From the sequence record LC765218.1: DNA of 64,000 nt; one strand, written 5' to 3'. Made by a program: the position numbers and the translations under genes. Below, piece after piece: positions 7,021-59,651 of the stretch (its first letter is position 1; each line of letters opens with the position of its first letter). Origin of the DNA: Pseudomonas phage BRkr. The notes under the pieces are model-generated. The model ran no database searches. It saw only the letters and a list, made by a program, of their open reading frames with translations, and was not told the DNA's origin.

Positions 7021-7036
7021 CTATATTACAACTGTG
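7021..7036 (+). promoter_or_regulatory. phiKZ-type early promoter, copy 1 (cTATATTACAACTGTG)
   Basis: One of four near-identical copies of cTATATTACAAnTGTGaATA. Each lies 39-47 nt upstream of a start codon and just downstream of a terminator. TATATTAC matches the early-promoter core reported for phiKZ-like virion RNAP. Confidence 0.65.
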
Positions 7037-7061
7037 CATCACCAGAACTAAAGAGGTATAA

Positions 7062-8639
7062 ATGCGCATCGACGTTACTGGGGTACAAGGCAACGGCTTT
7101 GTGGAAGTAACCACTAGCCATAAAGGAAACGAAATCAAGTGGAGTACAAGGGCTTATAGCAAAGTAAAACTCAATGATCCAACTCGTGTTTTCAAGGAAT
7201 TTAATGATTACCTAGAAAGCTGCGATGAGGCTGATCAAGATCGTATCTGGAACAGCTATGTCAAAATCAACGATCTGTTCAAGATGGACTTCGAACCGGC
7301 GCACATCTCCAGTACGCTGATCCATTACATCCATGAACTGTACTCAGCTCTGCCAATGAACAAACTCCGTCGTTGGCTGTTGACTATTGGTAATCTGCAT
7401 ATTCCACCAGAGATCCAGAAAACGATCACTGATGAATCGCGCTACACCAAGCGTGAGCAGACTTATCTTCAACATGACTACATCAACCTCGCTACTGTGG
7501 CACTTGGTCTTCGACCGATGGTTCCGATTTGGGGAGAATACATTGATTCGGGTACGGATCAAGAACTCCACAAAGAAAACGAAGTTGTTGGTTTGATTAG
7601 CCGTTGTGAAATTGCTAACTGGCCGCTACTTGAAAAAGATGAAGTGGGTGAAGATGTAGATACTGCATTTGACAAACTGGAAGGGTACGTCAAATTCTGC
7701 GTTGAAGATGAACCGACTACTTTGGGTAGCCTTTGGCGTGGTATGAGTTCAGTTGAAATTCCAGTACATCTTCGTTCGAAGGTTCTGGTTCGCCGACTGA
7801 CAATCGTTCCTCTGAACGATCCAATGTCCCACTCTATCGTAGCTAACACGTTCCGTTACGTACGTAGCAATCTCAATCCTGCCGAGCGTAGTCCAACTGA
7901 TCGCGTTAATGAAAAGCGTCCAGAAGGCGGCGGTGGTGACGACGAAGATAAAACTTCGTTTATTGAGGCACACAAGACGAAAGGTCGAGTTAGCCCAGGT
8001 GACATTGAGGCATACAACATCGATGCGATGGATTATGAGCTACTGGCACAAACGGTAGATCCTACTATCGACATGGAGAAACTGAGAAAATGTATTAGTT
8101 GCGTGAGTCAGGTCGCGAACTTTGAGATCCGTCCTCACCAAGTACTACTGGCACAATGGGTAATGGCAAAAGCTTTCCCGGCGCGTGCTTTCTATCATAT
8201 CTCCAAACTGCCAGTCAATACACTGTTGGCAACTACCCAGGCTCTACTGTGGCATTGGGGTTACCTTGATGTAGCTGTGTTCCTACAAGTCGAACCTGTT
8301 TATCACGGTGAACATGGATCGACTAATCAGCTTAGTAATACCCGAAGTGGTTCGAGAATTGCTCAGAAGTATAAGGCACAGCTCGATGAACTCTATCCGC
8401 ATATGAAACTCGCTAAGGTCCCCCAATCGGGAGAGATTCCTAAGCCAGATAACATGGCGGGTATTGCAGTGAATAACTGTAACCAGTCCATCCGCTCCTC
8501 TACTTGGATCTATCATGGTCCACCTGAGCTGTTCAAGCTTTCTGGACAGATTGCTCAGAACAACATTCTGATTCCACCTCCAAATATCAAGCACACGATC
8601 ACCGAAGTGGTTCTACACCTCGCTCAGATCAACCAGTAA
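7062..8639 (+). CDS. Early-expressed large protein, function unknown
   Basis: 525-aa ORF 40 nt downstream of early-promoter copy 1. RBS AAGAGG. Confidence 0.6.
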   Translation: MRIDVTGVQGNGFVEVTTSHKGNEIKWSTRAYSKVKLNDPTRVFKEFNDYLESCDEADQDRIWNSYVKINDLFKMDFEPAHISSTLIHYIHELYSALPMNKLRRWLLTIGNLHIPPEIQKTITDESRYTKREQTYLQHDYINLATVALGLRPMVPIWGEYIDSGTDQELHKENEVVGLISRCEIANWPLLEKDEVGEDVDTAFDKLEGYVKFCVEDEPTTLGSLWRGMSSVEIPVHLRSKVLVRRLTIVPLNDPMSHSIVANTFRYVRSNLNPAERSPTDRVNEKRPEGGGGDDEDKTSFIEAHKTKGRVSPGDIEAYNIDAMDYELLAQTVDPTIDMEKLRKCISCVSQVANFEIRPHQVLLAQWVMAKAFPARAFYHISKLPVNTLLATTQALLWHWGYLDVAVFLQVEPVYHGEHGSTNQLSNTRSGSRIAQKYKAQLDELYPHMKLAKVPQSGEIPKPDNMAGIAVNNCNQSIRSSTWIYHGPPELFKLSGQIAQNNILIPPPNIKHTITEVVLHLAQINQ

Positions 8640-8658
8640 AATTCAAGAGGTAAATTAC

Positions 8659-10293
8659 ATGCACGGAATCAACATGGGCATTTCCGCTGGTGCAGCTGTC
8701 AACTCGAAGTTGTCCGTACAGAACTTTGTTCTGGTGGAAACCGGCACCTATCAAGAACAGCACATTCGACCTTTCTCGATTAATGCTAACCAAGAAGTAG
8801 CTCGTCAACTGGAACAAGCTACAAATGGTGGCATGAACCTTCGGGTAAGTGCTGTACAAGAAGTAGCTTCTTCGGTTATCACTCCCCAAGCATCGGTAGA
8901 AGGTAGTGTCGGTATTGCACATGGCTGGCGTTCTCGCCGGTTCCGCTTCTTGATGAAAGTGAATGAGCAACATCCATTCATTGCGGGAACGCTGACTCAA
9001 CGTATCTTCTTTGGCTATAGTGACCACGCTGATGCATCTCAGAATTATCTGCCGGATGACATGCGTATCTACTTCAACTCCGAAACTATCATTGCTCAAG
9101 CTATTCAACAAACCATTCATGGTCCCCAACACGTTGCATCGATCGTAGGTTCCAACCAGATCGTTTCTCCTGTTGACATGATGGGTGGAATGAATGGAAT
9201 GTTCTCTCGTGCAACTGCTCACCTGATCCGTCCTGAAGATATCTTTAGTATTGGTCAAACAGCGCATGTGGCACAGAAACTGCAAAGCTCTGGTTTGTTT
9301 GACGGAATGATCAATCGGTCCATCGACCATCGCACGATGGTTGGTGAAGGAGGAGCATACAAGTATAGCCAACGTCGAGATACCTCTCCAACTCGTTATC
9401 TGTCGAATACTCTTGGCGCATACCAACATGCTGTCAAAGAGAATGCAATGGAGAACCAAGGGGATGATCTGTTCGGGGCTCCTGATAAAGATGTAATGTT
9501 TGGTGAAGCTGCTGCCCAGTGCAGGAATCAGCAGATCCATACTAACACCTTCTTGGCTGTTCTTAAAGATCATGCCGGGTATATGGAGAATGGCTATATC
9601 ACTTTCCGTGATCTCAAGCGGCTCTTCCCTGAATGCGGCACCCAACAGGTTACTCAGTTCTCCATGAACGATGGCCGTTCAATCCGTCGTATTTCTCAGG
9701 CAGAAGACTCCGAAGTTTGGAGCGGTGCAGACTATACCTCCATTGGTGCAAGTCTGTTGGCACAGACCATTCCGTCGATCATGATGGATACCTTCCTCCG
9801 CACTTGCTCGTTTGCTGTAACTAATGGTACTGGTCCGAATAACTATTCGTTCGAGTTCCATCCGCAGAACTCTAAGGCTATCATTGATAACCTGGACATG
9901 CGTCAATACATTCTGGAATTCGAACGCCGCCTGGCTATCGATATCCTGAACAACATCACCCGTGGTAACCAGCTGCCGTTCCGTATCTCGATGCATTCGG
10001 ACTTGGCTGGTGACTCGATCATCGATATTGCCATCGGTGGTCAGTCGCTGACTCGTTTCATTGCACCGACCTTTACGGATAGTCTGTTCTCCCCGATGAT
10101 TACCCGTAACGAGCAACACCCGACTAACCTGTCTGGTGATATGCTGTGGCTGGTACAAGAAGTAATTCCCAATCCGACTCAACATCAGGCTCTTCAGTCT
10201 GTCGGTTACCAACATCCGGTAGCTGCACCCATCATGATGCCTAACGCTATTAACCAAGGAGCAAGCAATGTCGTTGATCTTGGACTCGTATAA
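8659..10293 (+). CDS. Early-operon protein, function unknown (ends …DLGLV)
   Basis: 544-aa ORF with no terminator separating it from 7062-8639. RBS AAGAGG. The opposite-strand ORF 8629-9645 is judged antisense. Confidence 0.6.
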   Translation: MHGINMGISAGAAVNSKLSVQNFVLVETGTYQEQHIRPFSINANQEVARQLEQATNGGMNLRVSAVQEVASSVITPQASVEGSVGIAHGWRSRRFRFLMKVNEQHPFIAGTLTQRIFFGYSDHADASQNYLPDDMRIYFNSETIIAQAIQQTIHGPQHVASIVGSNQIVSPVDMMGGMNGMFSRATAHLIRPEDIFSIGQTAHVAQKLQSSGLFDGMINRSIDHRTMVGEGGAYKYSQRRDTSPTRYLSNTLGAYQHAVKENAMENQGDDLFGAPDKDVMFGEAAAQCRNQQIHTNTFLAVLKDHAGYMENGYITFRDLKRLFPECGTQQVTQFSMNDGRSIRRISQAEDSEVWSGADYTSIGASLLAQTIPSIMMDTFLRTCSFAVTNGTGPNNYSFEFHPQNSKAIIDNLDMRQYILEFERRLAIDILNNITRGNQLPFRISMHSDLAGDSIIDIAIGGQSLTRFIAPTFTDSLFSPMITRNEQHPTNLSGDMLWLVQEVIPNPTQHQALQSVGYQHPVAAPIMMPNAINQGASNVVDLGLV

Positions 10294-59280: not shown

Positions 59281-59562
59281 ATGTTCGGTAATTTTGTAAA
59301 AGGTCTGGGTTGTGTTGTAGTCGGCGGTGTAATCTCGATGATCGCCATTACATGGACCGACGAGAACACAGCAGAAGAAGTCATGCAGAAACTGCGTGAC
59401 GCCAATGATCGAATCCCGCCGGATTACGATCTCGATAAACGTAAAGAAGAACTGTCCGATCTGGCAGAACGCCTGATCCATGAAGCAGAAGAACGTATTC
59501 TGCTGACGGCAACTCTGCGCGAACTGCGTGAGGAGGTTGTCAAGTTCCTGCGTAAACTGTAA
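59281..59562 (+). CDS. Small protein with N-terminal TM helix (early)
   Basis: 93-aa ORF with RBS AAGGAAAG. Followed by a UUCG-loop terminator with a T-run. Confidence 0.5.
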   Translation: MFGNFVKGLGCVVVGGVISMIAITWTDENTAEEVMQKLRDANDRIPPDYDLDKRKEELSDLAERLIHEAEERILLTATLRELREEVVKFLRKL

Positions 59563-59566
59563 TAAG

Positions 59567-59594
59567 AAGGGCTCTTCGGAGCCCTTTCTTTTTA
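59567..59594 (+). terminator. Class-A terminator AAGGGCTC-TTCG-GAGCCCTT + TCTTTTTAT
   Basis: UUCG tetraloop plus U-run, just before early promoter 4. Confidence 0.7.
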
Positions 59595-59629
59595 TCATAT
59601 TCGAATGTACATTTAAGTCTTTTTAAAAC

Positions 59630-59651
59630 GTATATTACAAATGTGATAATA
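59630..59651 (+). promoter_or_regulatory. phiKZ-type early promoter, copy 4 (GTATATTACAAATGTGATAATA)
   Basis: Consensus match. Lies 47 nt upstream of micro-ORF 59678 and just after terminator 59567-59594. Confidence 0.6.

Follow-up and report, generated by a model that had tools for sequence, protein, structure and literature searches.

The 64,000-nucleotide stretch of Pseudomonas phage BRkr that was analysed here (LC765218.1; hereafter the window) contains four exact copies of the element TATATTACAANTGTG, at 7022-7036 (P1), 18406-18420 (P2), 58469-58483 (P3) and 59631-59645 (P4), all on the + strand. We propose, with a probability of roughly 90%, that these four elements, together with a fifth site at 57038 (P5) and possibly a sixth at 12026, are phiKZ-like early promoters that would be read by the injected virion RNA polymerase (RNAP), with a predicted transcription start at the G located seven nucleotides after the 8-mer core TATATTAC. 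The evidence established here consists of the sequence of the elements and its statistics, their strand bias and conservation, their correspondence in position to phiKZ sites and the presence of polymerase genes. Megablast assigned the window to a Pawinskivirus jumbo phage, with 99.3-99.7% identity to vB_PaeM_PS119XW, PA1C, HHBS36_1, phiHQ and phiLBG22, and with 80-86% identity to HPP-Temi. Pawinskivirus phages are phiKZ-like, nucleus-forming members of the Chimalliviridae, and PS119XW encodes a nuclear shell protein and PhuZ. Window positions (x) convert to PS119XW positions as x + 43,814, or as x + 43,805 near the 3' end of the window.

The first-pass annotation had described four near-identical 20-nt elements and the exact copies of TATATTACAANTGTG bear this out, with the last four positions of that 20-mer (‘aATA’) only loosely shared (CATC, AATA, ATAT and ATAA). 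With at most two mismatches allowed, TATATTACAANTGTG has five matches in the window where 0.65 are expected, and none of 100 shuffled sequences reached five. The core TATATTAC alone occurs four times against 2.1 expected, which is not significant since 13 of 100 shuffles contained at least four copies. Therefore, the signal resides in the extended element. All four exact copies are intergenic. The first T of the core lies 40, 43, 44 and 47 nt before the ATG codons at 7062, 18449, 58513 and 59678, respectively, in agreement with the 39-47 nt given before.

In the whole PS119XW genome, TATATTAC is present at 27 sites, 23 of them on the + strand, and 20 sites share extended flanks. These 20 sites were used to build a position weight matrix that spans -38 to +4. 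Scanning the window with this matrix at a threshold of 8 bits yielded six matches, all on the + strand, and no match in 20 shuffles. The four exact copies scored 46.6-49.2 bits, and the two remaining matches, at 57038 and the weak one at 12026, had been missed in the earlier reading. A genome-wide motif scan had been suggested in the first-pass annotation as a check; in PS119XW it gave 33 matches, 33 on the + strand and none on the - strand, which is not a random orientation. The median predicted 5' untranslated region (5'UTR) in PS119XW is 30 nt. The same procedure applied to phiKZ returned 30 matches, all on the + strand, which is close to the 28-32 published phiKZ early promoters (PMC8244752; PMC10914365) and thus validates the approach. 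An exact scan of IMG/VR for the 16-mer TATATTACAANTGTGA showed it, among the listed loci, in multiple copies only in two jumbo contigs of about 300 kb (four loci in a contig of 309,208 bp and four copies in one of 317,367 bp). The other listed contigs, including jumbo contigs of 302,439, 266,743 and 314,814 bp, had one match each. Scans of IMG/VR for the two flank types described below gave, among the matches listed, single chance matches.

In a profile of the promoter set, the information content begins to climb near -38 and falls away at +2 or +3. The profile contains four blocks when the G is taken as +1. The first, at about -34 to -27, reads ATTyAAA or TAAAAA, and the second, at -24 to -15, reads TTTAAAnnC or TnTCAnATC. 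The third is the core TATATTAC at -14 to -7 and the fourth is TG at -1/+1. The A/T-rich blocks around -20 and -30 that mark membership of the phiKZ-like early promoters are thus present. Early promoters of phiKZ and 201phi2-1 are conserved in the -10, -20 and -30 regions (PMC11512511, with ONT-cappable-seq of 201phi2-1), and for phiKZ-type early promoters an AT-rich motif has been described some 10 bp before the start (PMC7598289).

Several observations bear on the predicted start site. Firstly, the G at core+7 is present in 53 of 55 sites in PS119XW and phiKZ combined and in 6/6 window sites, and it is preceded by T in 50 of the 55. Secondly, early promoters of the Bacillus jumbo phage AR9 have the form AAATATATATTAT-(6N)-G, in which the G is the start mapped by differential RNA sequencing (PMC5312081). 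The final G of the BRkr element has the same spacing, as the AT-rich core of AR9, TATATTAT, is also followed by 6N and G. Thirdly, variation within the conserved phiKZ block is confined to core position 6, which is T or C, and to the base two nt ahead of the G; these become -9 and -2 if G = +1. Positions -9 and -2 are reported to be variable in phiKZ and conserved in 201phi2-1 (PMC11512511), and this match supports G = +1. Lastly, the predicted 5'UTR medians in phiKZ are 37-40 nt, which is in line with the published mode of 31-40 nt (PMC8244752) and also supports G = +1. The TGTG(A) extension downstream of the core is therefore most likely the initiation region, from -3 to +2. That the extension might mark the transcription start was one of two suggestions made from the sequence earlier, and it is the better reading. 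The other suggestion, that TGTG-ATA has no counterpart in published consensus sequences and may define the promoter of this phage lineage, does not hold. The extension is neither unpublished nor specific to the BRkr lineage. It is in print for phiKZ and 201phi2-1, with TGTG or GTG in their consensus, and the strings given for OBP and N1M2 are similar. The HPP-Temi orthologue of P2 has AATG.

The flanks of the PS119XW and phiKZ sites are of two types. Class A sites have the upstream sequence ATTyAAA-N4-TTTAAAnnn and the initiation region AAnnGTGA. Class B sites have TAAAAAnnTnTnAnATC upstream and a variable initiation region that ends in TG. In both phages the initiation region can be predicted from the upstream flank: AA at -6/-5 is found in 19 of 26 class A sites versus 1 of 29 class B sites (p = 6e-8), and TGA at -1 to +2 in 24/26 versus 10/29 (p = 1.5e-5), with both p values indicative as the classes were assigned by eye. 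Only T(-1) and G(+1) are general, and G(-2) and AA(-6,-5) belong to one of the two subclasses. Three of the four exact copies (18406, 58469 and 59631) are class A, and this accounts for the uniform look of the extension; the site at 57038 is also class A. P1 (7022) looks like a natural hybrid of a class B upstream half (cATTAAAAAATATCTCAGATC) and a class-A-like initiation region, AACTGTG. We tentatively suggest, although we consider it rather doubtful, that the early promoters of phiKZ and the BRkr-type phage form two discrete subclasses that were kept across two genera. Such subclasses could reflect two recognition modes of the injected polymerase, one of which might, for instance, depend on a specificity factor injected along with it. 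They could also correspond to two tiers of strength or timing, as may be compared with the ‘pre-early’ group of AR9. A single logo has been fitted in the literature that we searched on phiKZ-type promoters, in which the A/B split was not found; Ceyssens 2014 was outside that search. The possibility that class A specifically drives small membrane proteins was rejected at the genome-wide level (6/26 versus 3/29, p = 0.28).

A close parallel to the BRkr element is found in phiKZ. The phiKZ ‘consensus early promoter’ is given as ...gTATATTACAAATGTG in Table S1 of PMC12676376 and was used in that study as tatattaaaaaaaatttaagatgTATATTACAAATGTG. The consensus ...TATATTACAAATGTG holds the whole motif seen in BRkr. 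Both phages share the identical core TATATTAC, the TG seven nucleotides downstream, the A/T-rich blocks at -20/-30, the same two flank classes and about 30 promoters per genome on a single strand. The promoter positions relative to the orthologues of gp68, the gp076 region, gp010.1 and gp102.1 are also the same. The window site at 7022 corresponds to phiKZ 57984 (before gp68), 18406 to phiKZ 70339 (after the RNAP and helicase genes and before small genes), 59631 to phiKZ 4516 (before gp010.1), 57038 to phiKZ 106875 (before gp102.1) and 12026 to phiKZ 63063, a degenerate TATATCAT site before gp070.1/gp071. These phiKZ sites were located by sequence. Some features differ between the two phages. 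The bases just 5' of the core in class A are CAG in phiKZ and (G/C)CC in the BRkr-type phage; we observed that these bases are uniform within a genome and differ between PS119XW and phiKZ. G at -2 is more regular in the BRkr-type phage but variable in phiKZ. The predicted 5'UTR is shorter in the BRkr-type phage, with a median of 30 versus 37-40 nt, where the BRkr starts are predictions from sequence.

Other phages share parts of the element. The early consensus of 201phi2-1 is TATATTACDWHDGTG (Thomas 2008, quoted in Table 2 of PMC7058600), and the strings given for OBP and N1M2 are KATATTATYWWADTG and KATATTATYWAAGTGWA (Table 2, PMC7058600). In 201phi2-1 (Serwervirus) the arrangement TTTRARR-B-TATATTAC-DWHD-GTG has the same core, GTG at -2 to +1 and a class-A-like upstream flank, but a T-rich TnTT follows the core instead of AA. 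The first 50 kb of 201phi2-1 contain four sites TATATTAC-TnTTGTG, all class-A-like, and a class B flank was not seen among these four. AR9 differs in the last core base, which is T instead of C, and in its upstream context AAATA. It has a uracil-containing genome, and both phage and host are distant.

The polymerase genes that the proposal requires are encoded. The gene at 23056-24399 (+ strand) encodes a homologue of the phiKZ virion-RNAP subunit gp80 (70% identity; phrog_2962, RNA polymerase beta subunit). Other virion-RNAP homologues in the phage are those of gp178 (62% identity) and, by PHROG match, of gp180 and gp149. The virion RNAP of phiKZ consists of orf178, 149, 180 and 80 (PMC12676376). 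Taken with the matching core, the strand-specific and intergenic location and the phiKZ-corresponding positions, these homologues bear out the phiKZ-type early-promoter identity that had been assigned to the elements at first sight.

It is very unlikely, in our view, that the sites are used by the non-virion RNAP as middle or late promoters, or that a regulator, and not the virion RNAP, binds to them. The literature that was searched gives no direct in-vitro proof of which enzyme reads such sites, and the split into classes A and B indicates that something beyond the core is read. However, the middle promoters of phiKZ have a different make-up, with TACT about 22 nt upstream of the start after an A-rich repeat, or a weak AT-rich motif at about -24, and its late promoters have T-3 A T G+1 (PMC7598289; PMC8244752). 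The gene downstream of P1 (7062-8639, see below) is a homologue of phiKZ gp68, which we take to be the fifth subunit of the non-virion RNAP. Since P1 would drive a subunit of this enzyme, it must be read by something that already exists in the infected cell, and P1 at least must fire before the non-virion enzyme exists.

We regard it as extremely unlikely that the class A element is, or doubles as, a host sigma-70 promoter, from which host RNAP would start about 14 nt further downstream. The string TGTGATAAT is similar to an extended -10 (TGnTATAAT), for which TTTAAA, seventeen nucleotides upstream, could be the -35 element, and 59622-59650 was flagged as sigma-70-like (TTTAAA, 17 nt, GATAAT, with TG). 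The phiKZ motif has also been said to contain an ‘extended -10 box’ (Wicke et al., PMC8244752). Still, the likeness is superficial, as it consists of hexamer-like strings (TATATT and TGnGATAAT) in an AT-rich region. Only the copy at 59631 passed the sigma-70 scan, and those at 7022 and 18406 failed. The -35/-10 spacing misfits three of the four copies. Nor does the conserved stretch coincide with a -10 hexamer: the information content drops off steeply beyond +2, and the T at the would-be hexamer position 6 is not conserved. The sigma-70 reading of TGTGATAAT was rejected, as the copies do not in general have hexamers 16-18 nt apart with conserved A2 and T6 in the -10. The sigma-70-like string is wholly absent from class B promoters, and the region has seven sigma-70-like sites against 8.4 in shuffles and thus no excess. 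In addition, infection by phiKZ has been reported not to depend on host RNAP (PMC8244752; PMC10914365).

That the copies have no shared function and were passively carried along when gene cassettes, made up of paralogous small genes and the DNA upstream of them, were duplicated is hardly credible to us: some copies do have long identical flanks (58445-58478 matches genome positions 26672-26705 over 24 nt upstream) and many of the downstream genes encode similar-looking small hydrophobic proteins, but similarity between copies stops sharply at about -38 and +3, the element precedes unrelated genes (among them those for the gp68 homologue, the nuclear shell protein and RNAP beta), it is co-oriented with the downstream gene in 33 of 33 cases on the + strand, it is kept in HPP-Temi while the flanks diverge, and it recurs at corresponding phiKZ positions although the proteins are only 57-70% identical.

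Three points weigh against the interpretation as early promoters of the virion RNAP. The matrix was trained on sites of the same genome and is circular for these training sites, which leaves the 13 degenerate-core matches in PS119XW (two of them in the window) and the absolute strand bias as the only independent support. The +1 register of phiKZ-type promoters is indirect, as it derives from AR9, from text on logos and from 5'UTR lengths. Finally, the literature search gave no 5'-end, timing or in-vitro transcription data and no promoter analysis for Pawinskivirus.

We infer from phiKZ, 201phi2-1 and AR9 where RNA synthesis starts in BRkr, that it is early and which polymerase carries it out. 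Early transcription in AR9 is chloramphenicol-independent and has been assigned to the virion RNAP on that basis (PMC5312081). In the proposed mechanism, a multisubunit virion RNAP that is packaged and injected with the DNA would recognize the element of about 41 bp without host factors. The injected enzyme would bind from about -38 to +3 and RNA would start at the G seven nucleotides after the core, which is at 7036, 18420, 58483, 59645 and 57052, with 12040 as a further, less certain start. The resulting leaders of 26-33 nt would carry a Shine-Dalgarno sequence, and the early transcripts would encode the non-virion polymerase subunit and batches of small, mostly hydrophobic proteins.

As had been noted before, the copies precede either an early operon, which starts with the gp68 homologue, or genes for small membrane proteins. 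The genes after 18406, 58469 and 59631 mostly encode proteins of 31-113 amino acids with one hydrophobic segment (Kyte-Doolittle 19-residue maximum of 1.9-2.7). The core is conserved in HPP-Temi at all five strong sites. P1 extends over 6998-7038 (+ strand; core 7022-7029; predicted start G at 7036; 46.6 bits). Its core and TG are kept in HPP-Temi and at phiKZ 57984 upstream of gp68, where the phiKZ initiation region is CATG. The gene at 7062-8639 (+ strand) is the first gene predicted to be transcribed from P1, and its product has 57% identity over 525 amino acids to phiKZ gp68 (phrog_3209). P2, class A, extends over 18382-18422 (+ strand; core 18406-18413; predicted start G at 18420; 47.2 bits). 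Its upstream half overlaps the end of the open reading frame (ORF) 18099-18401 and it precedes four small hydrophobic proteins encoded at 18449-19373. The HPP-Temi orthologue of P2 has kept the core, with the initiation region AACAATG instead of TGTG. P3, also class A, extends over 58445-58485 (+ strand; core 58469-58476; predicted start G at 58483; 49.2 bits) and precedes tiny hydrophobic proteins from the ATG at 58513 onwards. In HPP-Temi it is identical from -24 to +5, while the flanks diverge. P4, class A and conserved in HPP-Temi, is found at 59607-59647 (+ strand; core 59631-59638; predicted start G at 59645; 47.8 bits), before the ATG at 59678.

The fifth promoter, P5, is class A and is located at 57014-57054 (+ strand; core TATATCAC at 57038-57045; predicted start G at 57052; 31.5 bits). 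The full string is TATATCACAATTGGG, which reads TATATCAC-AATTGGG with the initiation region TGGG. It lies within the last 33 nt of ORF 56640-57071, 27 nt before the ATG at 57079, and it is conserved in HPP-Temi. The sixth site is a weak, degenerate class-B-type site at 12002-12042 (+ strand; core TATATAAT at 12026-12033; predicted start G at 12040; 11.2 bits). It is situated 26 nt before a non-virion RNAP beta-like gene, and it is 99% conserved in HPP-Temi, where the 91 nt around it differ only by a 1-nt indel. The polymerase genes may have here a promoter that is weak by design or active at a different time. By PHROG matches, the non-virion RNAP beta and beta' genes are at 12066-14177 and 14204-16177.

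Each element had been placed immediately downstream of a terminator in the first-pass annotation, which is correct for two of the four copies, those at 7022 and 59631. Upstream of P4, an intrinsic terminator at 59566-59595 (+ strand) consists of a canonical GC-rich hairpin (59566-59587) followed by a T-run (-16.2 kcal/mol, z = -3.9). Upstream of P1, at 6947-6992 (+ strand), a hairpin at 6947-6983 (-22.7 kcal/mol, z = -6.96) is followed by GCTGTATGCCC. This hairpin has no T-run and was not called as a canonical terminator, and it is likely a terminator of the phiKZ type. Before 18406 no terminator was seen (folding z = +0.3), and before P3 there is only a weak 6-bp hairpin at 58433-58448 (-7.1 kcal/mol). 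Many promoters are preceded, at a distance of 15-25 nt, by a hairpin with the conserved tail (G)GCTTTATGT(C) at its end, and the two make up a terminator-promoter cassette. In the window, this tail reads GCTGTATGCCC and is at 6981-6992, and tails like ‘..GGCTTTATGT..’ precede about half of the PS119XW promoters (examples at PS119XW 13895, 20160, 117650, 172035 and 173950). The tail looks like the ‘terminator motif A’ of phiKZ and 201phi2-1 named in PMC11512511.

Two further observations concern the gene content of the window. The DNA helicase gene (phrog_16) is present as two overlapping ORFs in different frames (16234-16671 and 16611-17768), which are annotated as two genes, gp071 and gp072, in PS119XW. 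It is a single coding sequence in HPP-Temi and in phiKZ (gp75), and the split could be due to a frameshift, a pseudogene, a programmed frameshift or a sequencing error. The segment 59777-61000 has 88-90% nucleotide identity to phiKZ-group genomes (phiKZ gp010.1-gp012, 4663-5379). The rest of the window is far less similar to phiKZ, with 57-70% identity between the orthologous proteins that were compared. This sequence pattern suggests that Pawinskivirus and Phikzvirus recently exchanged an early-gene cassette. The promoter at 59631 adjoins the high-identity block and lies outside it.

The elements add new, so far unannotated copies to a promoter class that is well known, and taken by themselves they are of minor importance. 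The GenBank records of PS119XW, PA1C and HPP-Temi carry no promoter features, and Pawinskivirus gains regulatory annotation in the form of six predicted early starts in the window and about 33 in the genome. In practical terms, the phiKZ consensus early promoter already drives selectable cassettes in phage engineering (PMC12676376). The A/B subclasses, if they are functional, would bear on how a virion polymerase that lacks a sigma factor recognizes DNA.

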